Shown here piece after piece: positions 1-13,817 of a stretch of 64,000 bases of DNA. Positions within the stretch are counted from its first letter, which is position 1; each line of letters begins with the position of its first letter. The stretch lies in assembly GCA_018175275.1 (NCBI GenBank), contig GCA_018175275.1_4531.1, one strand, 5' to 3'. The notes under the pieces were generated by a model. That model was not told where the DNA came from. It saw nothing but the letters and a program-made list of their open reading frames with translations, and searched no databases. The position numbers were made by a program, and so were the translations under genes. This DNA comes from a phage.

Positions 1-127
1 AGATCTGATTCAGGATGCCTTTTGTTTGTTAAAAAACCAGCTTCGATTTGAACTTGTTCAAGGTCCATCATCTTTTTGATAATGGTTTCCCAATCCGTAT
101 CATCACCTGGTAAGATCTCACTTTCCA

Positions 128-676
128 TTATTTGTCCCTACGATAAAAAGAAACAGGTCCGTAATTTCGCAAATAATTAACGTTGCGTGTATTACGATCA
201 ACACTTGCAACATTACCAAGACCATTTACAGAGTTAGGATCGCTGTTTACTCGATCAATCTCACGAGCATCAACACCACCAATAAGAACTTTACTGGTTG
301 CTCCTCGTCCTGCCGTGCACCCAGGAATAACCATAAGACCATTTAAATAGTTATGATAAATATCTTCCCACGGAGACTTATAAGTTACTTGACCGTTGTT
401 AAATTTAACTTCAACTTCGACTTCACCCATCTTTTCTCTGCGGGACATAGCTCCTCCTGTTTGAGTATTGTTATTAAGAACATCGTTGTTCCATAAATAC
501 TCTAAAACAGAAATCAAGCTGTTCCACAATACTGCACACTTATCCTTATCTTCATTCCCTATGATATCAATCCAAGTCTGGATGATCTGAATCAGCATTG
601 CATCTGGCAATACTTCTTGAGAAGGGTTATAAACAAGAATTCGGATCAGTGGTGCCAACTCTACCGCATTCAGCAT
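128..676 (-). CDS. hypothetical protein, head/packaging module
   Basis: 182-aa ORF, co-oriented and tightly packed after the capsid-like gene; no recognisable motif. Confidence 0.35.
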   Translation of the reverse strand: MLNAVELAPLIRILVYNPSQEVLPDAMLIQIIQTWIDIIGNEDKDKCAVLWNSLISVLEYLWNNDVLNNNTQTGGAMSRREKMGEVEVEVKFNNGQVTYKSPWEDIYHNYLNGLMVIPGCTAGRGATSKVLIGGVDAREIDRVNSDPNSVNGLGNVASVDRNTRNVNYLRNYGPVSFYRRDK

Positions 677-685
677 AAGCCCACC

Positions 686-1084
686 TTATTTTTTACGAAG
701 GGAACGTTTTTTAGCTGGAGTGTCTACCGCTTCTACTTTTAAAACTTCTTCTTTGATTTTTACAGGTGCATAATCTTCGTAACTTACAAGATAGTAACCC
801 ATGTGTTCTTCACTTGCAAAAGGATGCACAAGAATACCTGTTTCTTCTCTCAAACGTGTGAGGAAGTGAATGAAGTTTCCACCTAATGCAATACGACCAT
901 CTTTCAGATAGAAAGACATTGGTGGCGCAGATACTAATGTTTTATCAGCATCGATCAGTGGTGAAAGCGATTCGAAATCACGAATCATTTCGTGATAACT
1001 AAAGTAACGTTTCAATTCTGGGTTTGACATATCAATCTCCTCATTGTAAACTCTTGTTGTAAACAGAAAAGGCTCGCCCATCAC
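686..1084 (-). CDS. hypothetical protein, head/packaging module
   Basis: 132-aa ORF between capsid-like gene and the 182-aa ORF; position only. Confidence 0.35.
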   Translation of the reverse strand: MMGEPFLFTTRVYNEEIDMSNPELKRYFSYHEMIRDFESLSPLIDADKTLVSAPPMSFYLKDGRIALGGNFIHFLTRLREETGILVHPFASEEHMGYYLVSYEDYAPVKIKEEVLKVEAVDTPAKKRSLRKK

Positions 1085-1114
1085 GGACGAGCCTCTAATA
1101 TTAACAGAGTTCTG

Positions 1115-2116
1115 TTAAGCCGTAGTCAGTTTAACTACCAGTTCTGGACGAGTGTTAACTGCGAGCAGCGAGAATTCAGACTGAAGCTGAATGGTGCGGT
1201 GCTGGCTGATCATGAAGGTATACAGTTCACGAGCCTGGGTGTTAGCCAGTTCTGGAGTATCCGCAGGAGCGTAGTGCGCCTGGAACATACCTTCGATACC
1301 CATAGGCAGAACATATGCTTCACCAGCAGGGATGTTACCGTGGATATCTTCAATGTAAGTTACACCGTTCCATTCGAACACCTGAACATCCATGTTACCG
1401 CTAAGGCGGTCACGCAGAAGGTTAGGAGTTCCCTGGAAATACTGATACGCCTGGCGAACAAATGGAGAGTTAACCAGAGATGCGAAAAATTCACGAGAAC
1501 ACAGAGCTACGATACGAGTAGCGGTAGAGCCATCTTGTTTAGTATCGATGATGTAAGCACGAGCTTCTTGCTCGATAGTGGCTGCTGGAGAAACAGTGGT
1601 AGAAGCAAAGTCTACAGCAACAGATTTCTGGGTAGCACCCCATTCGGTATACCAGTTGTATGCAGAGTTAGCTGCACCACCTACGCCGTTATAGGCACGA
1701 CCCATAACTGCTTCTGCAAAGATTTTCTCTTTGGTTTTTGCTACGTCACGCAGAATCTGGGACATATAGCGGTTAACAACTTCAGCGTCTGTGCGCAGAG
1801 AGTCATTGATTCCTGCCATCGCAAAGCTACGGAAAGATTGAATATCTTGAGCTTTGATGTTTTTATCCAGAGGGAAGAACGGAATACGGAACGCTTTCAG
1901 TTCTGGATTTTTCATGGTCAGGAAGTTACGCTCACCACCACGCTCACGAGCGGAGATCAGAGCATCTTCAGCTTTTTCTTTACCGATTTCAATAGCGGTA
2001 GTTGAATGATAGTCAACGCTGAACAGATTCAGGCTGGCAATCAGTGTATCAGGGGAATCCTGAAGTTCGATCATAGGGCTGAAATCTACAACCTGATCTA
2101 AAATTACTGCTGGCAT
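1115..2116 (-). CDS. putative major capsid protein
   Basis: 333-aa ORF following the scaffold-like coiled-coil gene in the order terminase-portal-scaffold-capsid; call is positional, not motif-based. Confidence 0.4.
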   Translation of the reverse strand: MPAVILDQVVDFSPMIELQDSPDTLIASLNLFSVDYHSTTAIEIGKEKAEDALISARERGGERNFLTMKNPELKAFRIPFFPLDKNIKAQDIQSFRSFAMAGINDSLRTDAEVVNRYMSQILRDVAKTKEKIFAEAVMGRAYNGVGGAANSAYNWYTEWGATQKSVAVDFASTTVSPAATIEQEARAYIIDTKQDGSTATRIVALCSREFFASLVNSPFVRQAYQYFQGTPNLLRDRLSGNMDVQVFEWNGVTYIEDIHGNIPAGEAYVLPMGIEGMFQAHYAPADTPELANTQARELYTFMISQHRTIQLQSEFSLLAVNTRPELVVKLTTA

Positions 2117-2137
2117 TATATTAATCTCCTATTAAAA

Positions 2138-2536
2138 TTAAGAAGTGAAAACGACTTTTTCGGTCAGTTTCAGATCATGTGTTTCCAGTGCTGCTACGCC
2201 AGCGTCATCTACCAGGGAGCCATCTTTGTAGTATACTGCAAAGCGGTTCAGAGTAAGATCACGTACGCCAACAACTGCGGTGAAAGTGTCACCTACTGCT
2301 ACATCGTCAATACCGAACAGAGCATCAGTCCAAATCAGAACTTTAGCAGCATCGGCAGCTTCAGCTTTAGCAGCTTCAGTGTTGTCAGCTTTCAGGATAG
2401 AACCAATTTTCATGGTTGCTGTTTTAACCAGGTTAACTTCACGTACACAGTGTCCAAGGTCAGAGCTAAACACTCCACCCAGAACCAGGTGTCCGAATTC
2501 CTGGCGAGAGTTAGATAAAGTAATTCCTTTAGCCAT
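2138..2536 (-). CDS. hypothetical head-associated protein
   Basis: 132-aa ORF between scaffold-like and capsid-like genes. Confidence 0.3.
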   Translation of the reverse strand: MAKGITLSNSRQEFGHLVLGGVFSSDLGHCVREVNLVKTATMKIGSILKADNTEAAKAEAADAAKVLIWTDALFGIDDVAVGDTFTAVVGVRDLTLNRFAVYYKDGSLVDDAGVAALETHDLKLTEKVVFTS

Positions 2537-2555
2537 TTAATTTAATCTCCTAAGA

Positions 2556-3671
2556 TTATTGTTTCTGGGCTTTTTTAAGTTCAGCAGCTTTCTGACTAAT
2601 CAGTTCAGAAGAAGATTTAGCTACAGGTTGAGTATTGATCACATCAACACCACGTTCTGTTCCAAATTCTTTCTTAACTGCGTCCACTTCTGCACGTGCT
2701 TTTTCGAATGCTTTGACGATAGTTTCAGCGATATCTTTATTGTCTACCAGATATTTAACGAGAGCTTCAACTTTGTCTTCTTCTACGAAAGAATAGGATT
2801 TAACAACAGTTGTATATTCTTCTTCGATACGAGCTTGTTCAGCTTTACGAAGTTCTTCTGCTTCCTGTTCTGCCTTAGCAATTTTTTCCTGTGCTTCAAG
2901 TTCTGCGGCTGCACGTGCATCTGCGGCTGCTTTTTCTACAGCTTCAGCGATCTGTGCTTTCATCAGTTCTTGGAATTCAGCAGATTTCAGGAATTCTTCT
3001 TTGTTGATATTTTCCAAAGGGGTTTCTCCTTTATTGATTCCAGTTGTGTTTGCAGATTTATCACCTGCGGGGTTAGCCTCTGCATCCACAGAGTTTGTAT
3101 TAGCTTTAGCGTGAGCTTTCACTAAATAATCTTTAACTTGACTTTGTTTCAAGGAACTCTTAACGAGATTACTCAAAGCATCGTCTAAAACGTCCTCAAA
3201 GAAATCAATGGAGATCATTACATCACCATCAACAACTTGATAATCAGTAACACGAACAACAGGTTTAGCAACCTCTTCAACTTCAACATTCAGTCCGTCA
3301 ACTTTAAAGCCAACAGAGAACATGCCGTTATCTGAACAGAAAATTGCAACGTTCGCATCGAAGTCAGCATCAATAACGTAAACCCAATCCCAACCAGCTT
3401 CAAATTTTTCACGCACTTTTTCAGAGATGCGATCCATCACTTGTTGAATATAGCTTTTACGTAACTCTGTAACATCTTCTCCCATTTTAGTGAGAGCTTC
3501 TAACTTTTCAAAAGTTATGTCTGGAGATCCGTCTGACTTAAATAAAAGGGGGGTATTATAACCAGATGCTGCTCCACCTTGAAAATCGAAAGTGTAAGCA
3601 ATATGAGCACCTAGTGACTCTTCCGTAGCTTTTCCTGAAAAGTCTACGTTAGTTAAATATGTATTTGCCAC
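2556..3671 (-). CDS. putative scaffolding protein
   Basis: 371 aa; C-terminal Ala/Glu/Lys-rich coiled-coil segment (AAADARAAAELEAQEKIAKAEQEAEELRKAEQARIEEE); lies between portal-like and capsid-like genes. Confidence 0.4.
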   Translation of the reverse strand: MANTYLTNVDFSGKATEESLGAHIAYTFDFQGGAASGYNTPLLFKSDGSPDITFEKLEALTKMGEDVTELRKSYIQQVMDRISEKVREKFEAGWDWVYVIDADFDANVAIFCSDNGMFSVGFKVDGLNVEVEEVAKPVVRVTDYQVVDGDVMISIDFFEDVLDDALSNLVKSSLKQSQVKDYLVKAHAKANTNSVDAEANPAGDKSANTTGINKGETPLENINKEEFLKSAEFQELMKAQIAEAVEKAAADARAAAELEAQEKIAKAEQEAEELRKAEQARIEEEYTTVVKSYSFVEEDKVEALVKYLVDNKDIAETIVKAFEKARAEVDAVKKEFGTERGVDVINTQPVAKSSSELISQKAAELKKAQKQ

Positions 3672-3673
3672 GA

Positions 3674-4153
3674 TTAGTCCTTCTTGACTTTAACGCCCAT
3701 TGCGCCTATACTCAAACCTTTAAGAACGCCGTCTTTACGAGCTTGATATAATTCAGGGTCGTTGAATTGGATTTTAACGAGGGGAGTTCCTTCCACAACG
3801 AGTTCGTCACCAATGTAACAATCGACTTCATTTACCCAAGCTTTAATTGGAGAAAACTTATCGGTGTTCTTCATGTGACCAAGATTACCGCTAATGTTGG
3901 TAATATTCTCATTGAAGTTGTCAACCATCTTCCTGATTTCCAAATCAGACATGCGCTCTCCGTGGAGATCGTCTTCTTCAGGTGGACAATACAAGACCTC
4001 AATAACCTGCATCTTTTCTTCATCAAATTTATTTTGTTTGACTAAAGTTTCAGGTTTTTGAGATGGTATAGAATCTTGTTGGGATTCAGAATTCTCTTTA
4101 AAACCAGCGAAGGTTTTGAAGAGTTCCCACAGTGTATCTTTATTGAGTTCCAT
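3674..4153 (-). CDS. hypothetical protein, head morphogenesis region
   Basis: 159-aa ORF immediately downstream of the portal-like gene. Confidence 0.35.
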   Translation of the reverse strand: MELNKDTLWELFKTFAGFKENSESQQDSIPSQKPETLVKQNKFDEEKMQVIEVLYCPPEEDDLHGERMSDLEIRKMVDNFNENITNISGNLGHMKNTDKFSPIKAWVNEVDCYIGDELVVEGTPLVKIQFNDPELYQARKDGVLKGLSIGAMGVKVKKD

Positions 4154-4189
4154 TTGAAACCTCTTAAAAACAGATATCCCATAAATCTT

Positions 4190-4218
4190 AGTCTACAGGA
4201 TATTTGTTGTTTTGTCAA
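4190..4218 (-). promoter_or_regulatory. sigma70-like promoter (TTGACA-N17-TAGACT) upstream of the 159-aa head gene
   Basis: minus-strand TTGACA at 4213-4218 within the recurring CTATTGACA context; weak -10. Confidence 0.3.
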
Positions 4219-4246
4219 TAGAAAAATTAAAAAATATTAAATATTT

Positions 4247-5812
4247 TTAATTCGACAGGTTTTGTGCTGAAGGATCTAAAGCAGAAACAGTATCAGATGT
4301 TCCAGTACCTGCTGTAGCTAAACCATCTCCTGATCGTGAAGTTTTGTCAGGCATATAGTTATCCATGAATTCAAAGAATTTCTCTTTATTGGCAACAATA
4401 TCGTCAGGGATGCGATATTCGAAACCAATTTTTTCAAGGAACTCGTTAATAACTTCTGGGGTTAAAGGTATTGCACCAGAGGCTACCAACTGCTGAATAG
4501 CTTTAGCATTTACTTCAATATCAGGATCACCCATTTCACCACTGACAAACTTAGGCATATCTTCATCAGAAAGGAAGATATTGTTTAGTCGTAGTGTTTG
4601 AGGGATCAGTTGAGAGTTTATAGCTTCTACAACAATATCTACATCTCGCTCAATAAAATGAGACAATAGTGTTTGTTTGTTGTCAGAAAGCGCAAAACTT
4701 CCTGCATCACCATCACCCATAATCAACACACCCGCACCAAAGCGGTTATAAATATCCAGTTTGCGTTGTTTGATTAGTGCTTGAGTGTCAAACTGTTTAC
4801 CCGTGCCATCAACACCTTGGAATACAAGATCGTATTGACGCATCACTGTGCCTTCATAAACGTCCGAAGGCAATACCATGTAGGCTTGCTCACCAGAGTG
4901 CAGGTTAGCGATGTTGGCTTGGAGAACTCGAAGAGATTGTGCTTCATCCCCAGCAGGATCTAAAGACGCCCTGTTTAGAATGTCACTAGGAACCTTAAGA
5001 ACTGGCATACCGCCTAAATCTTTAGATACCCCAATAACCTCAAATTCCTGAATAAGAGATTTTTCACGCCAGCTACGATATACAGCTAAAAGCGGACTAA
5101 CTCCTAGTGGGTTATTCTCTGTAATGTTGCTACCAACAAATAAAACTTTACTGAAAGGAATTTCTTTAATACCAGTTTCTAAAGTTGTATTACCTGGGGC
5201 TAACATTGTATTGGTGATATTCTGGTTAACAGACAAGATAGAACGTCCGTCTGCCGAATATGTAAAAGGTTGAGCCATATGAAGAGTATCTTGTGGTCTA
5301 AAAGCCAGCTTAGTTAATCGCCAATACCCAAAGTAAGGACTCTTAGGATCTTCATCCAACTCATAAACTTTTTCTGCGAATGCAAACCCATATTGCTTAT
5401 ATGTCAAAAGTGATCTAACATATTGACGTAGAGGGGCTTGCATATTACGTAACATATAATCAATAAACTTAGCAGCTTTTCTTGACTTTGCTGAGCTTAC
5501 ATTGTATTTTATCTTAAAATCAAAGAATGCTCTATCTACAAAGATATACGTAGCATCAAGAGCAGTAGCTACATCAGGGTCTTCACCCATCTCTTTAAAA
5601 GTTCGAATACATTCTGGGAAACGAGTCTCATAAGGTTGCATGAAATTCGTAAATGCTTTGATTGAGTTTAATCCGATCGTTCCTATTTCAGGTGACAGGA
5701 GTAACGTTTTCTCTTTCTCTGCTTCTTTTGTTGGAGAGAGAGCAGCTTTATTTGCAGCACCTTTGTCCCAGTATTCTGACTTTTTAGTGTACGTTCTTTT
5801 TCCTGTTGACAC
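4247..5812 (-). CDS. putative portal protein
   Basis: 521-aa ORF directly downstream of the large terminase gene; size and position typical of portal. Confidence 0.45.
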   Translation of the reverse strand: MSTGKRTYTKKSEYWDKGAANKAALSPTKEAEKEKTLLLSPEIGTIGLNSIKAFTNFMQPYETRFPECIRTFKEMGEDPDVATALDATYIFVDRAFFDFKIKYNVSSAKSRKAAKFIDYMLRNMQAPLRQYVRSLLTYKQYGFAFAEKVYELDEDPKSPYFGYWRLTKLAFRPQDTLHMAQPFTYSADGRSILSVNQNITNTMLAPGNTTLETGIKEIPFSKVLFVGSNITENNPLGVSPLLAVYRSWREKSLIQEFEVIGVSKDLGGMPVLKVPSDILNRASLDPAGDEAQSLRVLQANIANLHSGEQAYMVLPSDVYEGTVMRQYDLVFQGVDGTGKQFDTQALIKQRKLDIYNRFGAGVLIMGDGDAGSFALSDNKQTLLSHFIERDVDIVVEAINSQLIPQTLRLNNIFLSDEDMPKFVSGEMGDPDIEVNAKAIQQLVASGAIPLTPEVINEFLEKIGFEYRIPDDIVANKEKFFEFMDNYMPDKTSRSGDGLATAGTGTSDTVSALDPSAQNLSN

Positions 5813-5881
5813 TTGTTCCTCCAGTCAGGTATAAAATCGTTAAGGCAAGGCTGTATTATATACAACCTCACCTATCTAGTT

Positions 5882-5910
5882 ATAATACACTTTAAAGTGA
5901 CTTTTGTCAA
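5882..5910 (-). promoter_or_regulatory. sigma70-like promoter (TTGACA-N17-TATTAT)
   Basis: minus-strand -35 TTGACA (plus 5905-5910) and -10 TATTAT (plus 5882-5887), between terminase and portal genes. Confidence 0.45.
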
Positions 5911-5913
5911 CAA

Positions 5914-7989
5914 TTATCTTTTACGGACACTATACGGTTGGTGAAATCCGCTGTTCATTCTACTGTATCCTGTAGGAGCATTTGTTGTTGCAGGGATAGC
6001 TACTGCCTTGAAAGTATTCTCTTTTGACAGAGTATTGAAACAAGAAGCAGCAGCATCGGGAATGTCATCTTTAATAGTGGCTGTAGATCTTTCACCATTG
6101 AAAGATTCCAATTCTTTATAAAAGTGGGTTAGAGTTTCCACATTAGGGAAAGAATCTTCAACAATATAAACAAAACCATTTTGACACGCACTACTAAAAG
6201 GCATAAAACGCTGAAGCTTTTTCTTGTTACCTGGCATAGCATCTGGTTTAACAACAAAACCTTCTAGAATAAGTTTCTTTGCAGACTCTGTATATTCTAT
6301 TGTCCCAGCGCCAGATGGGTCTTTAGGAAGCACTACTGTAACTTCTGGTCCATCAATCTTACATTGATTAAGAATCAGATTATCCCTTTCCCCAGGTAGT
6401 CTTCTAAACCTTCCGAAAATTTTACTTTTCTCATCCACAGCGTCATAGTCATAGTCACCAAAGATGTAGATATTACCATCTTGATCTTTACCCATTTTGA
6501 CAGACGTTGTATAGTCTGGATAACGATAAGTTTCTGTAGGAACTGAAACAGCTTTATCCCAGGCTCGCATTAGTTTAAGATTGTTAGGAACATCTTTATA
6601 AGATATTTTATGTAACCATTCACGTTGAAAGAAAGATTCTTTCTGAATACGTGCAAACCAACAACCATCCAGAAGCTGTGCTCTTTTAATTGCTGTTTGT
6701 GATTTAAGCTGTGCTAAGTAATTAGGGTTAAGCCTAATCAGTTCTGGGTTATCAAATATTGTCCCACCAATAAATACGAAAGTTTGTGGTTCAATAACAA
6801 CTGTCTCCCCTGTATTAGGGTTTTCCATGAAACAGTTTTCTGGATATTTTTCTTTCAGTTCTTCAGGTGTGTCAGCAAAAACAGGTTCATCGTTAACAAT
6901 GATGAAATATTTTTGTTTACCACACATATCTTCTCTAGGATAACCACCCTCATCAAGATAAGGTAACACCCAATTCAAAACCCAACTATCTGCATCGGGG
7001 TTACATGTGCACAACATGAAGCTTGTTTCTGATTCTGAACGCATACGTCCCAGAAGATAGAGCATTTCATATTGCGTGAAGTGGGTTAACTCGTCAAAAC
7101 CTACCATTGAATACTGTGTACCCTGATGGTTTGTTTCTGCTGTTACGTTATCATTTTCCAAATGGTCGAATTTGAGGGTTCCACCACCAGTGGCTTCAAA
7201 AATGATATCCATTGTACTTTCTTTTACGTGCGGTTGTAAAGGAAGATACAAACGTTTTGCTTCTGTAAACAGACCACCTGGTTTACGGTGAGCAGTGGTG
7301 TTCTTACGGAAAAGTATTCCACCAAACAAAGGATCTTTGTAGGCGTATTTTAAAGCTTTCAGCAATAGCAGACGAGACTTGCCGCTATTCCCAGTAACGA
7401 AGCAGTGATCGCCACGTCTAAAGACAATATAGCTGCTTGGAGTCTCAAAACAATATTTCTTATCATCTGTTGAAATAACCTCGTGTATTTTTAAGTAAGT
7501 GCTCTTTTTACCAGGTATGTTAAAAGGAACACGTTTACCGAATGGATTTTCTACATAACCTTGAAGGGGTTTTCCTATTTGCTGTAATGCAATAAGATCT
7601 CCTACAAGAATCTCAAAATGTTTCTTTGATTTCTTTTTCTTATAGAATACAAAACGGTGTTCCATACTAAGTTCTTGGAACAACCCTACACCATTTGTTA
7701 TTCTGTATAGGTTATCTCCATTTAAATCGTATTCTACAAAATAAGGTGTTACCAATTCTAAACGCTTATTCTTAGGGTTGTATTGGTAAATATCTTCTCC
7801 CGAATATTCACTAATCTGTCTCCAACCATCTTTTGTAAGATATTCCGTTTCAGCAGAAACACATCCAGCGGCACCACCATAAATCATAACTTCTGGCATT
7901 AAATCCATTGCAAGAGTCTGTTTACCTGGTTGAGCCTTTACTTCAATATCTACTCCAGCTAAACTACCTGCTGCCTTTTTCTTTGCCAC
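5914..7989 (-). CDS. terL: terminase large subunit, interrupted by a mini-intein
   Basis: 691 aa; Walker B-like VGFDELTHF and downstream LCTCNPDADSW; N-terminal GGAAG and GKSR halves of a P-loop separated by a 159-aa insert with intein block A/B signatures. Confidence 0.6.
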   Translation of the reverse strand: MAKKKAAGSLAGVDIEVKAQPGKQTLAMDLMPEVMIYGGAAGCVSAETEYLTKDGWRQISEYSGEDIYQYNPKNKRLELVTPYFVEYDLNGDNLYRITNGVGLFQELSMEHRFVFYKKKKSKKHFEILVGDLIALQQIGKPLQGYVENPFGKRVPFNIPGKKSTYLKIHEVISTDDKKYCFETPSSYIVFRRGDHCFVTGNSGKSRLLLLKALKYAYKDPLFGGILFRKNTTAHRKPGGLFTEAKRLYLPLQPHVKESTMDIIFEATGGGTLKFDHLENDNVTAETNHQGTQYSMVGFDELTHFTQYEMLYLLGRMRSESETSFMLCTCNPDADSWVLNWVLPYLDEGGYPREDMCGKQKYFIIVNDEPVFADTPEELKEKYPENCFMENPNTGETVVIEPQTFVFIGGTIFDNPELIRLNPNYLAQLKSQTAIKRAQLLDGCWFARIQKESFFQREWLHKISYKDVPNNLKLMRAWDKAVSVPTETYRYPDYTTSVKMGKDQDGNIYIFGDYDYDAVDEKSKIFGRFRRLPGERDNLILNQCKIDGPEVTVVLPKDPSGAGTIEYTESAKKLILEGFVVKPDAMPGNKKKLQRFMPFSSACQNGFVYIVEDSFPNVETLTHFYKELESFNGERSTATIKDDIPDAAASCFNTLSKENTFKAVAIPATTNAPTGYSRMNSGFHQPYSVRKR
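7387..7863 (-). other. candidate mini-intein (Hint domain) within terL
   Basis: insert begins Cys (CVSAETEYLTKDGWRQISEY, block A-like), contains LSMEHRFVF (block B-like S/T-x-x-H), ends ...VTGN followed by Ser; excision gives YGGAAG|SGKSRLL = GxxxxGKS. Confidence 0.5.
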
Positions 7990-9350: not shown

Positions 9351-9372
9351 AAAAAGCCTCCAATAAGGAGGC
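9351..9372 (-). terminator. rho-independent terminator downstream of the tRNA cluster
   Basis: minus-strand hairpin GCCTCC-TTATT-GGAGGC followed by TTTTTG. Confidence 0.45.
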
Positions 9373-9488
9373 CAATAAATACTGTTAATTTGAAATGTTT
9401 TATTATGATTGTGCGTTAAGGAGTCGCACCCCTCCATCTTAGAAGGAACCAGGCAAGGTCTTCAAAGATACCGCTGGCAAGCGATATT

Positions 9489-9567
9489 TGGAGGCGGGAA
9501 TTGGATTTGAACCAATGATCTCCAGCATATGAAACTGGCGAGGACGACCAGACTCCTCTATCCCGCT
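9489..9567 (-). tRNA. tRNA-Met(CAT): tRNA-Met/Ile2 (CAT)
   Basis: acceptor AGCGGGA/TCCCGCC (1:72 mismatch), D-stem GAGG/CCTC, anticodon loop TT-CAT-AT, T-arm ATTGG-TTCAAAT-CCAAT, CCA encoded. Confidence 0.5.
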
Positions 9568-9645
9568 ATTATGTATCCCGTGCTGGATTCGAACCAGCGT
9601 CACAATAAATTGTGGATCTCTTATCCTGTAAGTCTAACGGGAAAC
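9568..9645 (-). tRNA. tRNA-like element, anticodon arm not resolvable (possible degenerate tRNA)
   Basis: canonical T-arm GCTGG-TTCGAAT-CCAGC and 6/7 acceptor complementarity, but no canonical 7-nt anticodon loop found by eye. Confidence 0.25.
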
Positions 9646-9719
9646 TGGTTGTTTCGACAAGAATCGAACTTGTATCTCACGATTATCAGTCGTGGGTTCT
9701 ACCATTGAACTACGAAACA
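9646..9719 (-). tRNA. tRNA-Ile(GAT): tRNA-Ile (GAT)
   Basis: acceptor TGTTTCG/CGAAACA, D-stem GTTC/GAAC, anticodon stem CACGA/TCGTG with loop CT-GAT-AA, T-arm ACAAG-TTCGATT-CTTGT, CCA encoded. Confidence 0.7.
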
Positions 9720-9782
9720 TTTAAAAGAATATCTCACGTCTGATACAGACTAACCTTTTGTCTGACGCATGAAATATTTAAT

Positions 9783-9859
9783 TGGTCGGAATTGCAGGAT
9801 TCGAACCTGCGACCCTACGCTCCCAAAGCGTATGCTCTACCAAACTGAGCTAAATTCCG
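9783..9859 (-). tRNA. tRNA-Pro(TGG): tRNA-Pro (TGG)
   Basis: acceptor CGGAATT/AATTCCG, D-stem GCTC/GAGC, anticodon stem TACGC/GCGTA with loop TT-TGG-GA, T-arm GCAGG-TTCGAAT-CCTGC; 5' end overlaps the stop of the HNH gene. Confidence 0.7.
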
Positions 9860-10368
9860 TTATTAATGTGCTTCCATGTGGTGTAAGTAACAATATCCTG
9901 TATTGTCCATCTTGAAACTTCATACTTTTTTGCCAATGCTCGTTGACTAATTTTAGTAGTCTCATACTCCATACGGATTTGAATAACATCTTTTTCTGAT
10001 AACTTGGCTTTATTATTTTCTTCCCCTTTAGGATTAACAAGTAATCCTGTGCTAACAGCGTGTGTCATATTCTCATGCTGTGTCGCCCACTCCACGTTAT
10101 CCTTGTGGTTGTTAAGCTTGTTACCATCTTTGTGATTAACAGATTTCTTGTTTTCAGGATTAGGATGAAAAGCTTTACAAACCAAACGGTGAATCTTAAA
10201 ACAAATACTTTTTCCTTTTCTACCGCCAATTTTTGTTGCGTGGGTATAGTAACCTGTTTTAGATATGGTTTGGGATAGTATCTTATTAGTTCTCTTACTT
10301 CTTAATCTTCCGAGGTCACTTATTTGGAAGTAATTCTCATAACCAGCTACATCACGCCATTCTTCCAT
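9850..10368 (-). CDS. HNH homing endonuclease (NUMOD4-like N-terminus) inside the tRNA cluster
   Basis: 172 aa; N-terminal EEWRDVAGYENYFQISDLGRLRS; HNH core HRLVCKAFHPNPENKKSVNHKDGNKLNNHKDNVEWATQHEN; AAGGAGG RBS. Confidence 0.6.
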   Translation of the reverse strand: MEEWRDVAGYENYFQISDLGRLRSKRTNKILSQTISKTGYYTHATKIGGRKGKSICFKIHRLVCKAFHPNPENKKSVNHKDGNKLNNHKDNVEWATQHENMTHAVSTGLLVNPKGEENNKAKLSEKDVIQIRMEYETTKISQRALAKKYEVSRWTIQDIVTYTTWKHINNGI

Positions 10369-10494
10369 TTATACCTCCTTATACCTGAATAAAACAATAA
10401 ACCATTTAATGAAGGGCAACCAGAAGAAGTGTGAGAGAAGGAGAAAACCATGAGTAAAAGAGAAAGTTTTCTGGCAACCCTTTATTAAATAATT

Positions 10495-10571
10495 TGGAGC
10501 GTTATATCGGATTCGAACCGATGCCACCGACTTGGAAGGACGGGATGCTGAACCGCTAACACTAATAACGC
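10495..10571 (-). tRNA. tRNA-Gly(TCC): tRNA-Gly (TCC)
   Basis: perfect acceptor GCGTTAT/ATAACGC, anticodon loop CT-TCC-AA, T-arm ATCGG-TTCGAAT-CCGAT, CCA encoded; D-arm slightly irregular. Confidence 0.6.
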
Positions 10572-10588
10572 TTTGTATATATATATTT

Positions 10589-10618
10589 ACTATACTACAT
10601 TTTACTATCGAATGTCAA
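10589..10618 (-). promoter_or_regulatory. sigma70-like promoter (TTGACA-N18-TATAGT) driving tRNA-Gly
   Basis: minus-strand TTGACA (plus 10613-10618) and TATAGT (plus 10589-10594), about 20 nt upstream of the tRNA 5' end. Confidence 0.5.
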
Positions 10619-10893
10619 TAGTTATTTAATAGGTGGGACAGTGACGAGTATCCCTTTGGGTGACTAGCCCTACGTTCGGTAAGCTAACTTAAAATAATAC
10701 AAAACCAAAGTCAAATATTATTCTTCGTTGCTGTCGATGGGAGAGCCGCTTCTCATTTTGCCCCATCCAACCCTACTCCGGTCAAGTTTCGGGTGACTCT
10801 TTTTGTGATCAACACAATACTAAGAACACTGTCTTTCGAGCAGACCTTGTGCACAGGATACGACGATCAATCACAGTGCTCTTAATGTTGTGT

Positions 10894-10968
10894 TGGTGCT
10901 CCCACACTGAATCGAACAGAGATCCACGGATTACAAAACCGTTGTAATAGCCATTATACTATAGGAGC
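10894..10968 (-). tRNA. tRNA-Thr(TGT): tRNA-Thr (TGT)
   Basis: acceptor GCTCCTA/TGGGAGC (one G-U), 3-bp D-stem, anticodon stem ACGG/CCGT with loop TT-TGT-AA, T-loop TTCGATT, CCA encoded. Confidence 0.5.
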
Positions 10969-10973
10969 AATGC

Positions 10974-11051
10974 TGGGACTCGGCAGGATTCGATACCTGC
11001 AATTCCAGAAGCCTATTGGCGACTGGGGGTTTACCTTAACTCTACAAGTCC
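10974..11051 (-). tRNA. tRNA-like element with 8-nt T-loop and non-canonical anticodon region
   Basis: T-arm GCAGG-TATCGAAT-CCTGC and acceptor complementarity GGACTTG/CGAGTCC; central region forms an extended hairpin instead of a standard anticodon arm. Confidence 0.25.
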
Positions 11052-11058
11052 ATAATTC

Positions 11059-11144
11059 TGGCGATGAGTATAGGATTCGAACCTATATTGTTCTTTCGAA
11101 CACGGATTAACAGTCCGCCGCTTAAACCATTCAGCCAACTCATC
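11059..11144 (-). tRNA. tRNA-Asn(GTT): tRNA-Asn (GTT) with unusually long variable region
   Basis: perfect acceptor GATGAGT/ACTCATC; anticodon arm GCGGA-CTGTTAA-TCCGT; about 14-nt variable hairpin GTTC-GAAA-GAAC; T-arm ATAGG-TTCGAAT-CCTAT. Confidence 0.5.
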
Positions 11145-11150
11145 TTAATT

Positions 11151-11238
11151 TGGTGGTGAGTGATGGAGTCGAACCACCCGAATCGCAATGATAACAGATT
11201 TACAGTCTGCCCCGCTACCCCTACGGAATTAACTCACC
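11151..11238 (-). tRNA. tRNA-Tyr(GTA): tRNA-Tyr (GTA), type II
   Basis: perfect acceptor GGTGAGT/ACTCACC, anticodon stem GCAGA/TCTGT with loop CT-GTA-AA, long variable arm, T-loop TTCGACT, CCA encoded. Confidence 0.6.
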
Positions 11239-11368
11239 TAAATACTAATATTTAAATTCTTTTTAAAATAGCCAGTGTTCACACCACTAACTATGAGTTA
11301 TCGGTAAAGTGGTTACCGCCACTTGCCGAAGATTTACTCTGCTAAAGTAAGCTACATTAAAAAGAACT

Positions 11369-11454
11369 TGGCGGTAGATGTAGGACTCGAACCTACACGC
11401 CGTTTCCGACTACAGTTTAGCAAACTGTCGTGGCTACCATTTCACCAATCTACC
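11369..11454 (-). tRNA. tRNA-Ser(GCT): tRNA-Ser (GCT), type II
   Basis: perfect acceptor GGTAGAT/ATCTACC, anticodon stem ACAGT/ACTGT with loop TT-GCT-AA, long variable arm, T-arm GTAGG-TTCGAGT-CCTAC, CCA encoded. Confidence 0.7.
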
Positions 11455-11459
11455 TAATC

Positions 11460-11550
11460 TGGCGGAAGGAGGGAGAGTCGAACTCCCAAGGCTCTTTCAA
11501 GCTCGGCGGTTTTCAAGACCGTTTTCGTCGCCACATCGATTTGCCCTTCC
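11460..11550 (-). tRNA. tRNA-Ser(TGA): tRNA-Ser (TGA), type II
   Basis: acceptor GGAAGGG/TCCTTCC, anticodon loop CT-TGA-AA, long variable arm GAGCTTGAAAGAGCCTT, T-arm GGGAG-TTCGACT-CTCCC, CCA encoded. Confidence 0.65.
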
Positions 11551-11559
11551 ATACTTATA

Positions 11560-11588
11560 ATCTAACATAAAATAATGTTTGTTGTCAA
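11560..11588 (-). promoter_or_regulatory. sigma70-like promoter (CTATTGACA -35, weak -10) upstream of tRNA-Ser
   Basis: minus-strand TTGACA (plus 11583-11588); -10 candidate TAGATT at 18-nt spacing. Confidence 0.35.
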
Positions 11589-11784
11589 TAGTTTTTTAAA
11601 ACATTTTACCATGAATGGTGACTCCACCAACCCCCGTTCTCCACGAACGGTGCTCTTCGAGCATTTATGTCTTCTAATATAACCGTGGCCTTTGTTTATA
11701 ATGTCTGACATACTTGCCTCATTCTCTGCCACCATGATCAGTAGTGGGTTCAAATCACTTGAGCTAATTCATGTTAAAATGTTC

Positions 11785-11859
11785 TGGTGTCTTTACAAGG
11801 AATCGAACCTTGACTAAGAGTTTAGAAGACTCCTGTGCTATCCATTACACCATAAAGAC
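11785..11859 (-). tRNA. tRNA-Arg(TCT): tRNA-Arg (TCT)
   Basis: perfect acceptor GTCTTTA/TAAAGAC, D-stem GTGT/GCAC, anticodon stem GGAGT/ACTCT with loop CT-TCT-AA, T-arm CAAGG-TTCGATT-CCTTG, CCA encoded. Confidence 0.7.
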
Positions 11860-11861
11860 TT

Positions 11862-11936
11862 TGGTGGCCCTGGCTGGTTTCGATCCAGCTACCTATCGGT
11901 TATGAGCCGACAGCTCTCCCATTGAGCTACAGGGCC
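11862..11936 (-). tRNA. tRNA-Met(CAT): tRNA-Met or Ile2 (CAT)
   Basis: perfect acceptor GGCCCTG/CAGGGCC, D-stem GCTC/GAGC, anticodon stem GTCGG/CCGAT with loop CT-CAT-AA, T-arm GCTGG-ATCGAAA-CCAGC, CCA encoded; acceptor resembles E. coli tRNA-Ile2. Confidence 0.65.
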
Positions 11937-12141
11937 ATAAATGTGGTAACAGAGACGCTGACGATTGTAGAGAACCGCTACATTCTCTAAGACCAAGCCC
12001 AACTTTCAGCGTAAAAGTTCTTGAGCCGAGACTGTTCCTTTTCCTCTTTGGTAGCTAACCTCTGAAGAAGTAGTCTCTAACACTATCCGCAGTGCAAGCC
12101 CCTCTTAACAAAAGTCAACGACCCTGTTACCACACTTGATG

Positions 12142-12176
12142 AACGTATCCTAACATATGAAGGATACGTTTGTCAA
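12142..12176 (-). promoter_or_regulatory. promoter -35 box plus 10-bp perfect palindrome (candidate operator) heading the tRNA cluster
   Basis: minus-strand CTATTGACA (plus 12171-12176) followed by AACGTATCCT-N9-AGGATACGTT inverted repeat (plus 12142-12170). Confidence 0.4.
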
Positions 12177-13397: not shown

Positions 13398-13721
13398 ATG
13401 AGATTTACAAGACAAGAGGTAGTTGTGCTGGACGAAGCAATGACAATGATCGTCTTTTACTACGAGGATATCTTCTGTGCAGCATATCATTTAAATGATA
13501 TTCAGATTGAATGGCAGCAGATAGCATTCCTGTTGGACAAGAGTAATCATTTGGATGGCTTTGAGTATTTGGAGTGGGATGGTGCAAAGGAAGTTAAAAT
13601 TGTAGGGTTAAATCACGATCAGATTGTTGACATGCAATGTAAGTTGTGTCATTATCAGTTCTCAAACAAAGTCAAACTCGAAAGGCAATTGGAGGTGGTT
13701 AAAGATGATAGCACTAATTAG
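13398..13721 (+). CDS. hypothetical protein (first gene of plus-strand block)
   Basis: 107-aa ORF with AGGAGG RBS. Confidence 0.45.
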   Translation: MRFTRQEVVVLDEAMTMIVFYYEDIFCAAYHLNDIQIEWQQIAFLLDKSNHLDGFEYLEWDGAKEVKIVGLNHDQIVDMQCKLCHYQFSNKVKLERQLEVVKDDSTN

Positions 13722-13817
13722 TGAGAACCCAATCCTGACAACAATTGTTCTGATTTTTGCCATGTGTGTGGTTCACGATGTTCTGGTAAGTTATTTTGAC
13801 AACAAAGGAGGTAAGAA

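Follow-up and report, generated by a model that had tools for sequence, protein, structure and literature searches.

A coliphage tRNA gene cluster encodes several structured non-tRNA RNAs, one of which is a near-exact antisense copy of the end of a plasmid abi gene

Results

We analyzed a 64,000-nt stretch of phage DNA (the window; GenBank assembly GCA_018175275.1, contig GCA_018175275.1_4531.1), which belongs to a phAPEC8-like coliphage (Phapecoctavirus, 99% to phage nepoznato), and found that its tRNA gene cluster also encodes several structured RNAs that are not tRNAs. One of these, referred to here as island C, contains a 62-nt core that matches plasmid ColIb-P9 at 59 of 62 bases, with a 53-nt stretch identical. 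As transcribed with the tRNAs, this core is antisense to the last 19 codons and the stop codon of a 114-aa gene named 'abortive infection protein' by NCBI, and the RNA therefore probably allows the phage to silence this bacterial defence. The homology is shown, whereas the function is inferred, and we found no description of such an RNA. The features of the region are summarized in Table 1.

Table 1. Features of the tRNA gene cluster, listed in the direction of transcription
Position	Strand	Feature	Supporting observations
12147..12176	-	Promoter-like site 1 (TTGACA, 18-nt spacer, TG, TAGGAT); start of the first transcription unit	10 of 12 matches, TG present; block conserved in relatives
11939..12137	-	Island A: structured RNA of about 200 nt; closing helix of about 22 bp encloses five hairpins; leader of the first tRNA unit	MFE -76 kcal/mol; 74 predicted pairs, 9 with compensatory changes among three sequence types; no Rfam match; found only in Phapecoctavirus records
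11862..11936	-	tRNA with anticodon CAT (Met/Ile2)	ARAGORN; called tRNA-Ile-CAT by tRNAscan-SE in phage ASO2A
11785..11859	-	tRNA-Arg(TCT)	ARAGORN
11600..11783	-	Island B: structured RNA of about 185 nt with an 18-bp closing helix; ends invariant, centre variable	Alignment and consensus fold give one compensatory pair in the closing helix and a poorly conserved centre
11559..11588	-	Promoter-like site 2	10 of 12 matches, TG present
11461..11550	-	Atypical tRNA-Ser(TGA)	See text
11369..11454	-	tRNA-Ser(GCT)	ARAGORN
11254..11369	-	Island C: 116-nt RNA cassette; 18-bp closing helix P1 (11352-11369 with 11254-11272) encloses hairpins P2 (11334-11350), P3 (11301-11329) and P4 (about 11273-11290)	See text
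11290..11351	-	abi-antisense core of island C; matches the + strand of ColIb-P9 at 13400-13461	See text
11151..11238	-	tRNA-Tyr(GTA); constant downstream neighbour of island C in several phage lineages	Rfam tRNA model, 39 bits (match at 11154-11238)
11059..11144	-	tRNA-Asn(GTT) with a helix and GAAA loop in the variable region	ARAGORN; covariation of the extra arm
10974..11051	-	tRNA-like RNA with no anticodon loop and an 8-nt T-loop (UAUCGAAU); homologue of T5 RNA3	95-100% conserved in 88 phage records
10894..10968	-	tRNA-Thr(TGT)	ARAGORN
10630..10893	-	Island D: almost invariant 86-nt hairpin (10810-10895) followed by further conserved blocks	First 140 nt nearly identical in two clades that differ by about 18% elsewhere
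10589..10618	-	Promoter-like site 3	11 of 12 matches
10495..10571	-	tRNA-Gly(TCC)	ARAGORN
9850..10368	-	HNH homing-endonuclease ORF (NUMOD4 and HNH_3 domains) in the place of tRNA-Gln(TTG) in relatives	Replacement seen against ASO2A
9783..9859	-	tRNA-Pro(TGG)	ARAGORN
9646..9719	-	tRNA-Ile(GAT)	ARAGORN
9568..9645	-	tRNA-like RNA with a canonical T-arm and acceptor stem; central arm ends in a 4-nt loop	Loop varies among close relatives, the rest about 95% conserved
9489..9567	-	Atypical 79-nt tRNA(CAT) with an enlarged D-arm	ARAGORN (Met-CAT); labelled a pseudo-tRNA in one relative
9355..9373	-	Intrinsic-terminator-like hairpin followed by a U-run; end of the operon	Annotated as a terminator in ASO2A

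tRNAs and tRNA-like RNAs

The initial annotation, made from the sequence alone, listed 11 minus-strand tRNAs with encoded CCA, a hairpin in the variable region of tRNA-Asn, two elements with good T-arms and acceptor pairing but no canonical anticodon arm, and three stretches that could not be resolved into tRNAs. These observations were confirmed. Nine tRNAs were called by ARAGORN, and tRNA-Tyr was added by the Rfam tRNA model. The remaining tRNA, tRNA-Ser(TGA), was only sub-threshold here (tRNA-Sec model, 35.7 bits against a gathering score of 47), but a sequence differing at one base is annotated as tRNA-Ser-TGA by tRNAscan-SE in phage ASO2A. All 11 carry an encoded CCA. The extra arm of tRNA-Asn is a 4-bp helix that covaries in relatives (GUUC/GAAC, GAAC/GUUC, GAGA/UCUC and GUC/GAC).

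Both tRNA-like elements fold as cloverleaves whose central arm ends in a 4-nt loop. The element at 9568-9645 scored 24.3 bits on the tRNA model, below the gathering score of 29, and the element at 10974-11051 obtained no Rfam match at all. However, the latter is a homologue of the RNA annotated in the phage T5 record as 'RNA3, putative tRNA-like RNA', with which it shares GTAGAGTTAAG..TAAAC and ATCGAAT blocks and the position directly after tRNA-Asn; three divergent sequence types fold to the same cloverleaf.

Structured RNAs between the tRNAs

No tRNA was found by covariance models in 11239-11368, 11551-11784 or 11937-12140 at E values up to 10. Standard tRNAs at slightly shifted coordinates, which had been named in advance as the outcome that would overturn the observation, thus do not explain every segment. 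These stretches fold much better than shuffled sequences (z-scores of -4.0, -3.3 and -4.9, respectively), and so does a fourth stretch of the same kind that was not listed initially, at 10572-10893 (z-score of -4.2). Of the four islands, one has strong and one good compensatory support, and the other two weak or none: compensatory changes support islands A and C, whereas support for island B is weak. Homologues of the island D hairpin lie next to a pseudo-tRNA in E. coli prophages and in a plasmid carrying phage tail genes.

The initial interpretation was supported only in part. The tRNA list, the odd tRNA-Asn and the reading of the two elements as tRNA-like RNAs all stand, but the unresolved stretches are neither tRNAs nor tRNAs with inserts; they are separate structured RNAs closed by long terminal helices. 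The relationship of island C to a plasmid gene, which was not visible from the sequence alone, changes the interpretation from odd tRNA debris to a probable anti-defence RNA.

Island C and the plasmid abi gene

In a 17-sequence alignment of island C, 99.9% of cells were paired and 8 pairs showed compensatory changes, compared with 0-1 in slid controls. The model of this RNA (R1) scores 127.9 bits in the window, and hits a Scandinavium plasmid-like contig at 58 bits, antisense to the end of a 114-aa ORF. This ORF lies in 460 plasmids, mostly conjugative E. coli and Salmonella plasmids, where it is named 'abortive infection protein', and ColIb-P9 itself carries it at 13401-13745 on the minus strand. 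The match of the window core to ColIb-P9 has an E value of 1e-18, and 340 plasmids were matched. The + strand of the window translates as L*VIGKVVTATCRRFTLLK* against plasmid LWGIGKVVTATCRRFTLLK*, and a joint alignment was also made. In the phage the sense strand is closed by an in-frame stop codon, so that it is not a coding remnant under protein selection. All eight plasmid loci examined (seven distinct alleles) were hit by R1 on the strand antisense to abi, at 34-58 bits.

When a 421-nt abi query was compared with phages, 141 phage records were hit, and only positions 43-148 of the query occurred in them, never the rest of the gene. In total, about 140-180 phage records from four lineages carry this module in their tRNA clusters, which belong to Stephanstirmvirinae, Vequintavirinae (Vequintavirus, Certrevirus and Avunavirus) and T5-like Tequintavirus. 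Phage variants match different plasmid alleles, up to 100% over 53-58 nt. For example, Mt1B1_P17 is 100% over 53 nt to an IncF allele, the second module of ESCO8 is 100% over 56 nt to an allele found in 44 plasmids, and the second module of L008 is 100% over 58 nt to ColIb-P9. Some phages carry two modules in tandem, matching two alleles: the extra first module in ESCO8 and L008 is 89.5% to the RCS74_pI allele. Avunavirus is 89% over 81 nt to that same allele. The cassette is absent from the tRNA region of T5 itself, and T5 is the classical victim of ColIb abortive infection (PMC10644984).

We also examined whether the plasmids might encode an antisense RNA of their own. The plasmid strand antisense to abi has an invariant TGTTGACATT 17 nt upstream of TAGNNT in all seven alleles, amid variable flanks. 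The consensus scan, however, does not call a promoter there, because the -10 hexamer matches only 3 of 6 positions. For islands A and B, no identifiable target was found in E. coli genomes or plasmids, and the only homologues of island D are phage-borne; the anti-defence reading thus covers only island C.

Discussion

We consider it moderately likely that region 9355-12176 is a phage tRNA operon with three sigma-70-type promoters and one terminator, encoding 11 tRNAs and, co-transcribed between them, six other RNAs: two tRNA-like RNAs without an anticodon loop and four structured RNAs closed by long terminal helices. In this view, the enzymes that cut the flanking tRNAs would release these RNAs with paired, protected ends. 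They are the counterparts of the stable RNAs of the T5 tRNA region. The phage-specific closing helix of island C presents two hairpins that copy the antisense strand of the last 60 or so nucleotides of the ColIb-type abi gene, which encodes a hydrophobic protein. We propose that the RNA pairs with abi mRNA, probably starting at the complementary hairpin loops, and prevents Abi synthesis, either by duplex cleavage that removes the stop codon or by mimicking a plasmid-encoded cis-antisense antitoxin. Either way, the phage would escape ColIb-type abortive infection. Our analysis demonstrates the homology, the antisense orientation, the RNA structure with its covariation, the tracking of plasmid alleles and the tandem modules, whereas transcription and processing, pairing in vivo, the effect on Abi and the identity of this ORF with the genetically defined abi/ibf function are inferred. 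No expression, processing or phenotype data exist for any of these RNAs, and it is not known whether Phapecoctavirus is sensitive to Abi at all. The link between the 114-aa ORF and the genetically defined ColIb function rests on database naming and on the work of Gupta and McCorquodale (1988), although the ibf/abi products are described as not identified (PMC10644984). Allele matching could also arise if plasmids track phages rather than the reverse.

The closest known RNAs are the 'stable RNAs of unknown function' and tRNA-like RNAs of phage T5, of which eight are annotated among its tRNAs (RNAI, RNAIII, RNAIV, RNA2H, RNAX, RNA1, RNA2 and RNA3; GenBank AY543070). These are likewise non-tRNA RNAs interleaved with tRNA genes, expressed from the same early promoters, with paired 5΄ and 3΄ ends. 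Apart from RNA3, no sequence similarity to islands A-D was found, and no function is known for any T5 RNA. Species 1 and 2 RNAs of the T4 tRNA cluster (rnaC, rnaD) are also stable small RNAs of unknown function, co-transcribed and co-processed with phage tRNAs, and have no known complementarity to a defence gene; no sequence comparison with them was made here.

With respect to mechanism, Pectobacterium phage phiTE escapes the type III toxin-antitoxin/Abi system ToxIN through pseudo-ToxI, a phage-encoded RNA antitoxin mimic (Blower et al. 2012). There too, the phage carries a copy of, or look-alike to, the RNA that keeps an abortive-infection toxin silent, escape is sequence-specific, and copy number can expand. 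However, ToxI binds and inhibits the toxin protein, whereas the action proposed here is antisense pairing with the toxin mRNA, by a module that sits in a tRNA operon and tracks several target alleles. In type I toxin-antitoxin systems with 3΄-overlapping antisense antitoxins, such as txpA/RatA and bsrG/SR4 of Bacillus subtilis, and in the exclusion of T4 by hok/sok, the toxin is also a small hydrophobic membrane protein and the RNA is complementary to the 3΄ end of its mRNA; abortive infection could follow host transcription shut-off. Here, no plasmid antisense transcript has been shown, Abi is larger (114 aa) than typical type I toxins, and the antisense RNA is supplied by the phage in trans. 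Finally, phage tRNAs act as counter-defence against tRNA-cleaving immunity (van den Berg et al. 2023; T5 tRNA-Tyr against retron Eco7, Azam et al. 2023; both as cited in PMC10644984; T5 tRNA-Lys against PARIS, PMC11464382). The tRNA operon similarly acts as a store of RNA-based counter-defence, and the cassette is physically linked to tRNA-Tyr, but those cases replace cleaved host tRNAs, whereas island C is not a tRNA and its target is an mRNA.

Other explanations are possible but less likely. The RNAs between the tRNAs might be only processing scaffolds or spacers, whose long terminal helices would be RNase III, E or P substrates that help to cut the polycistronic precursor, without a trans-acting role; the similarity to abi would then be an accident of horizontal transfer. 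Indeed, every island has a long closing helix directly abutting a tRNA end, the 3΄ end of the cassette abuts the 5΄ end of tRNA-Tyr in several phages, and the 5΄ hairpin of island D sits next to tRNA-like genes in unrelated prophages. This unlikely reading does not explain why only the last 100 or so nucleotides of abi, always in antisense orientation, occur in phages, why different phages match different alleles at 100%, or why some carry two modules for two alleles.

Slightly more doubtful is the possibility that island C is a passive hitch-hiker, picked up once as a piece of plasmid DNA next to tRNA-Tyr and spread with that tRNA by recombination or homing, without selection on the piece itself. 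The module travels with tRNA-Tyr across phage families, homing endonucleases are active in these clusters, and many copies are nearly identical. However, the phage-specific closing helix shows compensatory changes at 3 pairs, the module has been exchanged repeatedly (at least four allele types) and duplicated, and it persists in lineages whose flanks differ by 20-30%.

A still less probable reading is that the plasmid uses the 3΄ end of abi mRNA to sense the abundant phage RNA, with pairing activating or stabilizing abi expression, so that island C would be a trigger rather than an inhibitor. The allele matching is symmetrical, and RNA-structure-preserving changes in abi alter its amino acids, so the plasmid pays a cost to keep this RNA region. 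On the other hand, T5 and BF23 trigger ColIb abortive infection (PMC10644984), yet the T5 tRNA region has no such element, and phages would be selected to lose a trigger, not to keep it inside a covarying helix and duplicate it for a second allele.

Least likely, the tRNA-like elements and islands could be decaying tRNA genes left from the larger sets of relatives (15-26 tRNAs against 11 here), as the drifting central loop of element 9568-9645 and the labelling of some atypical members as pseudo-tRNAs might suggest, but element 10974-11051 keeps the same anticodon-less cloverleaf in three sequence types shared with T5 and is more conserved than its flanks, while islands A-D have no tRNA-model similarity and A and C show compensatory changes for non-tRNA folds.

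Context of the tRNA cluster

The 3.1 kb surrounding the cluster is 99% identical to Escherichia phage nepoznato and 97% identical to many phAPEC8-like phages of Stephanstirmvirinae, genus Phapecoctavirus, and in those records only tRNAs are annotated here, whereas the stretches between them carry no features. Several records labelled as Campylobacter, Acinetobacter, Pseudomonas or Klebsiella phages are 97–99% identical to E. coli phapecoctaviruses across this region; the host labels are probably wrong, or the isolates are contaminants. The features discussed below are listed in the following table.

Coordinates of the features in the phage sequence and in the records compared with it
Feature	Record	Coordinates	Strand
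First sigma-70-like site	window	start at 12176	minus
Stretch of island A	window	11937-12140	
Stretch of island B	window	11551-11784	
Second sigma-70-like site	window	start at 11588	minus
tRNA-Ser(TGA)	window	11461-11550	
Stretch of island C	window	11239-11368	
Segment of island C matching ColIb-P9	window	11290-11351	
tRNA-Tyr(GTA)	window	11154-11238	
RNA3-like tRNA-like element	window	10974-11051	
Third sigma-70-like site	window	start at 10618	minus
HNH homing-endonuclease ORF	window	9850-10368	minus
Second tRNA-like element	window	9568-9645 (tRNA model match, 9574-9643)	
tRNA(CAT), last of the cluster	window	9489-9567	minus
Terminator	window	9373-9355	
Segment matching island C	ColIb-P9	13400-13461	
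abi	ColIb-P9	13401-13745	minus
abi and convergent DUF4238 gene	plasmid locus L073	12224-13745	
Leader before tRNA-Tyr	T5, AY543070 (L025)	11429-11540	minus
Small ORF region replacing tRNA-Asn	phiWec179 clade (L004)	4489-4640	
Small ORF region replacing tRNA-Asn	phiWec179 clade (L005)	4488-4640	
Homologues of the island D hairpin	E. coli prophages and a Salmonella plasmid (L075; L074; L076)	3001-3180; 3001-3083; 3001-3084	
Further RNAs between tRNAs	Justusliebigvirus and a distant IMG/VR phage (L021; L011)	3990-4077 and 4248-4392; 7146-7257 and 7419-7513	
Cluster of 26 tRNAs	IMGVR_UViG_3300030441_000047 (L011)	1-7600	

tRNA genes and transcription units

ARAGORN detected nine minus-strand tRNAs, to which the Rfam tRNA model (RF00005) added tRNA-Tyr(GTA). 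tRNA-Ser(TGA) was only sub-threshold in the window, although a sequence differing at one base is called tRNA-Ser-TGA by tRNAscan-SE in phage ASO2A. All eleven tRNAs carry an encoded CCA, and, with the exception of Ser-TGA, they score 39–72 bits, compared with a curated gathering threshold of 29 bits. tRNA-Asn has a 4-bp helix capped by GAAA in its variable region, and this helix covaries in relatives; it is therefore a maintained feature. The last tRNA (anticodon CAT, 79 nt) has an enlarged D-arm, with a 5-bp stem and a 9-nt loop, and a mismatch at the top of the acceptor stem; one relative annotates it as a pseudo-tRNA, yet it is 95–97% conserved even in Justusliebigvirus.

The initial annotation had reported eleven tRNAs, an odd tRNA-Asn, two elements without a canonical anticodon arm and three stretches that could not be resolved into tRNAs, and this observation was confirmed. 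It had also stated in advance that it would be overturned if covariance models explained every segment by standard tRNAs; at E up to 10, however, nothing in the three stretches resembled a tRNA. Its interpretation was partly supported, in that the idea of tRNA-like RNAs was right, while the unresolved stretches proved to be structured RNAs of another kind.

Three strong sigma-70-like sites on the minus strand and one terminator define three transcription units. Unit 1 comprises island A, tRNA(CAT), tRNA-Arg and island B (islands A–D being the structured stretches between the tRNAs); unit 2 comprises Ser, Ser, island C, Tyr, Asn, a tRNA-like RNA, Thr and island D; and unit 3 comprises Gly, an HNH endonuclease gene, Pro, Ile, a tRNA-like RNA and Met. 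The endonuclease ORF (NUMOD4 and HNH_3 domains) replaces the roughly 160-bp segment that carries tRNA-Gln(TTG) in most relatives, and its 3΄ end overlaps tRNA-Pro by 10 nt. Among the records examined, only the window and phage nepoznato have it.

tRNA-like RNAs without an anticodon loop

The second tRNA-like element scored 24.3 bits on the tRNA model, below the gathering threshold, and neither the RNA3-like element nor islands A–D were matched at E up to 10. Both fold as cloverleaves, with a 6–7 bp acceptor stem and a 5-bp T-stem, but the 7-nt anticodon loop on a 5-bp stem is absent: the central hairpin is closed by a 4-nt loop (6 nt in T5 RNA3), and there is no anticodon. The T-loop is canonical in the second element, whereas it has 8 nt in the RNA3-like element and its homologues. 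We also asked whether the second element is a decayed copy of the extra tRNA-Met found in Justusliebigvirus, and found that the sequences are unrelated.

The curated T5 record (AY543070) annotates eight RNAs among its tRNAs as “stable RNA with unknown functions” or “tRNA-like”. When these T5 stable RNAs were compared with the window by blastn, only RNA3 was related. T5 RNA3 lies directly after tRNA-Asn, as does the window element, and the two share the block GTAGAGTTAAG..TAAAC and the block (Y)ATCRAAT, which forms the unusual 8-nt T-loop (Y)AUCRAAU. A third version occurs in Justusliebigvirus. The window, Justusliebigvirus and T5/Spc35 versions differ throughout their stems, which covary, the acceptor stems being GGACTTG/CGAGTCC, TGCTTG/CAAGCA and TCTGTG/CACAGA and the T stems GCAGG/CCTGC, GTAGG/CCTAC and GCTGA/TCAGC, yet they give the same anticodon-less cloverleaf. 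The 3΄ CCA encoded in T5 RNA3 is not shared, since the window element ends ...GAGTCC-CAGCA and the Justusliebigvirus element ends ...CAAGCA-AATA. The element thus belongs to an old family that has never been explained; no role is known for either anticodon-less RNA or for the extra arm of tRNA-Asn. In the phiWec179 clade, tRNA-Asn is replaced by a small annotated ORF of 129 bp, while the RNA3-like element just downstream is kept at 97% identity.

Structured RNAs between the tRNA genes

Each of the four islands has a long helix joining its two ends and folds much better than shuffled sequence, with z-scores from –3.3 to –4.9. Island A has 74 consensus pairs, 9 of them with compensatory changes, among only three sequence types. 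Island B has invariant ends and a variable centre, and its support is accordingly weak. The first 140 nt of island D are nearly identical in two clades that differ by about 18% elsewhere. Island C could be aligned across 17 phages from four groups; 99.9% of cells are paired, and 8 pairs show compensatory changes, against 0–1 in slid controls.

Searches of Rfam 15 at gathering and at permissive thresholds, on the window and on the plasmid abi locus, found no known family for any island or for the abi antisense region. In particular, the Y RNA-like YrlA model (RF02553), which combines a long closing stem with a tRNA-like domain, gave only an 18.9-bit chance hit spanning two true tRNAs, against a gathering score of 69, and nothing on islands A–D.

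Similarity of island C to the plasmid abi gene

Island C occurs in 178 phage records: in Phapecoctavirus and Justusliebigvirus, in Vequintavirus at 97% identity, in Certrevirus, in Avunavirus and in a subset of T5-like Tequintavirus. It usually lies immediately upstream of tRNA-Tyr. A genome-wide pattern scan of bacterial genomes gave 40 hits, which were then scored with R1, a covariance model built from island C. By model score 39 were chance matches, whereas one, on a Scandinavium plasmid-like contig, scored 58 bits. There, the match lies antisense to the end of a 114-aa hydrophobic ORF. This ORF is present in 460 plasmids, mostly conjugative E. coli and Salmonella plasmids of the IncI and IncF types examined, and is named “abortive infection protein” by NCBI and UniProt. 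ColIb-P9 itself carries the ORF, convergent with a DUF4238 gene.

The segment of island C matches ColIb-P9 at 59 of 62 bases (95%), with a 53-nt exact stretch and an E-value of 1e-18, and 340 plasmids are matched. The tRNA-sense RNA is therefore complementary to the last 19 codons and the stop codon of abi. We also considered a coding reading of island C on the opposite strand, but there the window reads L*VIGKVVTATCRRFTLLK*, closed by an in-frame TGA, against LWGIGKVVTATCRRFTLLK* in the plasmid, and thus the phage copy is a non-coding fragment.

According to PMC10644984, the ColIb abi/ibf locus aborts T5 and BF23 infection through membrane depolarisation and is triggered by a pre-early phage function, its products and mechanism being unknown. 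Gupta and McCorquodale (1988) sequenced abi as a small ORF. The 114-aa ORF has long hydrophobic runs, but no family was found for it in Pfam, NCBIfam or PADLOC; as toxicity was not assayed, these features leave undecided whether abi encodes a small toxic membrane protein of the type I toxin kind. In the plasmid loci L070, L071, L073 and L077–L079, the abi ORF is always convergent with a gene for a 333-aa DUF4238 protein about 175 bp away, with a conserved GC-rich hairpin between them. The DUF4238 protein gives only a faint match to a PADLOC candidate system, and the pair might correspond to the ibfA/ibfB genes defined genetically on ColIb.

Evidence that the similarity is selected

Five lines of evidence indicate that this similarity is selected. 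First, when the whole abi gene was used as query, only its last 100 or so nucleotides were found in phages, in 141 records, and the match was always to the antisense strand. Second, phage variants match different plasmid alleles: the window, ECML-10 and UPEC06 match the ColIb-P9 allele at 95–97%, Mt1B1_P17 matches an IncF allele at 100% over 53 nt, ESCO8 matches an allele carried by 44 plasmids at 100% over 56 nt, L008 matches ColIb-P9 at 100% over 58 nt and Avunavirus matches the RCS74_pI allele at 89% over 81 nt. Trees of the abi alleles and phage modules were not compared for co-clustering. Third, ESCO8, L007 and L008 carry two modules in tandem inside one closing helix, the first of the RCS74_pI type and the second of the ColIb-P9 or pB17EC type. 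Fourth, the phage-specific closing helix covaries independently. Fifth, the tRNA region of T5, the classical sensitive phage, has no such element: model R1 does not find island C in T5 positions 24–44 kb. The leader between T5 promoter P14a and tRNA-Tyr has, by eye, a long closing helix (TGAATGAGAAGTAA...TTACTTTTCATTCA) and a TTACTTT..GTAAA motif that recall island C, but it is not matched by R1 and has no similarity to abi.

On the plasmid side, the two hairpins are also maintained among abi alleles by paired changes that alter the protein sequence (KVVTATCRR against KMVGTICRK). A perfect TTGACA lies 17 nt upstream of TAGNNT and is invariant in seven alleles, just outside the abi stop codon and pointing into the gene, although a simple consensus scan does not accept it as a promoter. 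An RNA starting there would fold into the same two hairpins inside a closing stem. A plasmid cis-antisense RNA, as in a type I toxin-antitoxin system, is therefore plausible but unproven; without transcript data, these observations do not settle whether the plasmid has its own antisense promoter.

Proposed role of island C and alternative explanations

We propose that island C is transcribed from the strong promoter at the second sigma-70-like site and that the enzymes processing tRNA-Ser(GCT) and tRNA-Tyr trim it to a helix-capped RNA of about 116–130 nt. This RNA would then pair with abi mRNA through the complementary hairpins and block Abi production, or it would replace a labile plasmid antitoxin RNA after host shut-off; in either case the phage would escape abortive infection. 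The homology, the orientation, the structure, the tracking of alleles and the tandem modules are established by the present analysis, whereas expression, pairing and phenotype are inferred, and neither a reduction of abi expression or toxicity nor escape from abortive infection was measured here. We hold this reading with moderate confidence. Among the alternatives, a pure processing scaffold appears unlikely, a passive hitch-hiker with tRNA-Tyr slightly more so, and a trigger rather than an inhibitor of Abi less likely still. Decay of tRNA genes is the least likely.

The nearest concept is the pseudo-ToxI antitoxin mimic of phage phiTE, and derivation of the phage copy from the abi locus is shown by the matches described here. 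We found no description of these RNAs in phAPEC8-like phages, or of a phage antisense RNA against abi, in Rfam 15 or in the searchable literature. If the proposal is correct, it would add mRNA-targeting antisense RNA to the known phage counter-defences, and would give a first function to one of the “stable RNAs of unknown function” that have sat in phage tRNA clusters since the T4 and T5 era. The mechanism of ColIb-mediated abortive infection of T5 and BF23 has been open since the 1960s, and a 2023 paper still calls the gene products unidentified (PMC10644984); a natural, allele-matched antisense RNA carried by about 140–180 sequenced phages makes this question directly testable. Moreover, these phapecoctaviruses, vequintaviruses and T5-like phages are widely used therapy and biocontrol candidates, while IncI and IncF plasmids carrying abi are common in clinical and livestock E. 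coli and Salmonella, and the module could therefore predict or extend host range.

A broader and more tentative possibility is that the tRNA operons of large coliphages are RNA-based anti-defence islands. In this view, a conserved helix-framed cassette next to tRNA-Tyr would carry exchangeable antisense modules, one or two per phage, that match the circulating alleles of the plasmid abi gene and silence it, in a nucleic-acid arms race between phages and conjugative plasmids. As a corollary, the classical ColIb abi/ibf system would be a type-I-toxin-antitoxin-like Abi controlled through the 3΄ end of its mRNA. The other orphan RNAs (islands A, B and D, the anticodon-less tRNA-like RNAs and the T5 stable RNAs) would be further decoys or antisense RNAs against defences not yet identified.

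Other RNAs of the tRNA clusters

Islands A, B and D, both tRNA-like elements and the remaining spacers were searched as one concatenated query against 72,556 plasmids and 5,426 E. coli genomes. Islands A and B had no detectable relatives there, and only the invariant 5΄ hairpin of island D matched, in prophages and in a plasmid carrying phage tail genes, not in defence genes. Islands A, B and D and the T5 stable RNAs were not searched, as antisense queries, against all defence-island genes in Enterobacterales pangenomes and metagenomes. In the E. coli prophages, the homologues of this hairpin lie between the portal and terminase genes, next to a 115-nt “pseudogenic tRNA-Gly”; the plasmid is a 92-kb non-mobilizable Salmonella plasmid.

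Justusliebigvirus and a more distant IMG/VR phage carry further conserved RNAs between their tRNAs that are absent from the window. One is an element of about 88 nt before a tRNA-Met, and another is a tRNA-like RNA ending in GGTTCGAYTCC...GCCA between Met and Ile. The 26 tRNAs of the distant relative IMGVR_UViG_3300030441_000047 include one with anticodon CTA, which ARAGORN calls “Pyl” (an amber-suppressor type), and one with an unreadable 2-nt anticodon.
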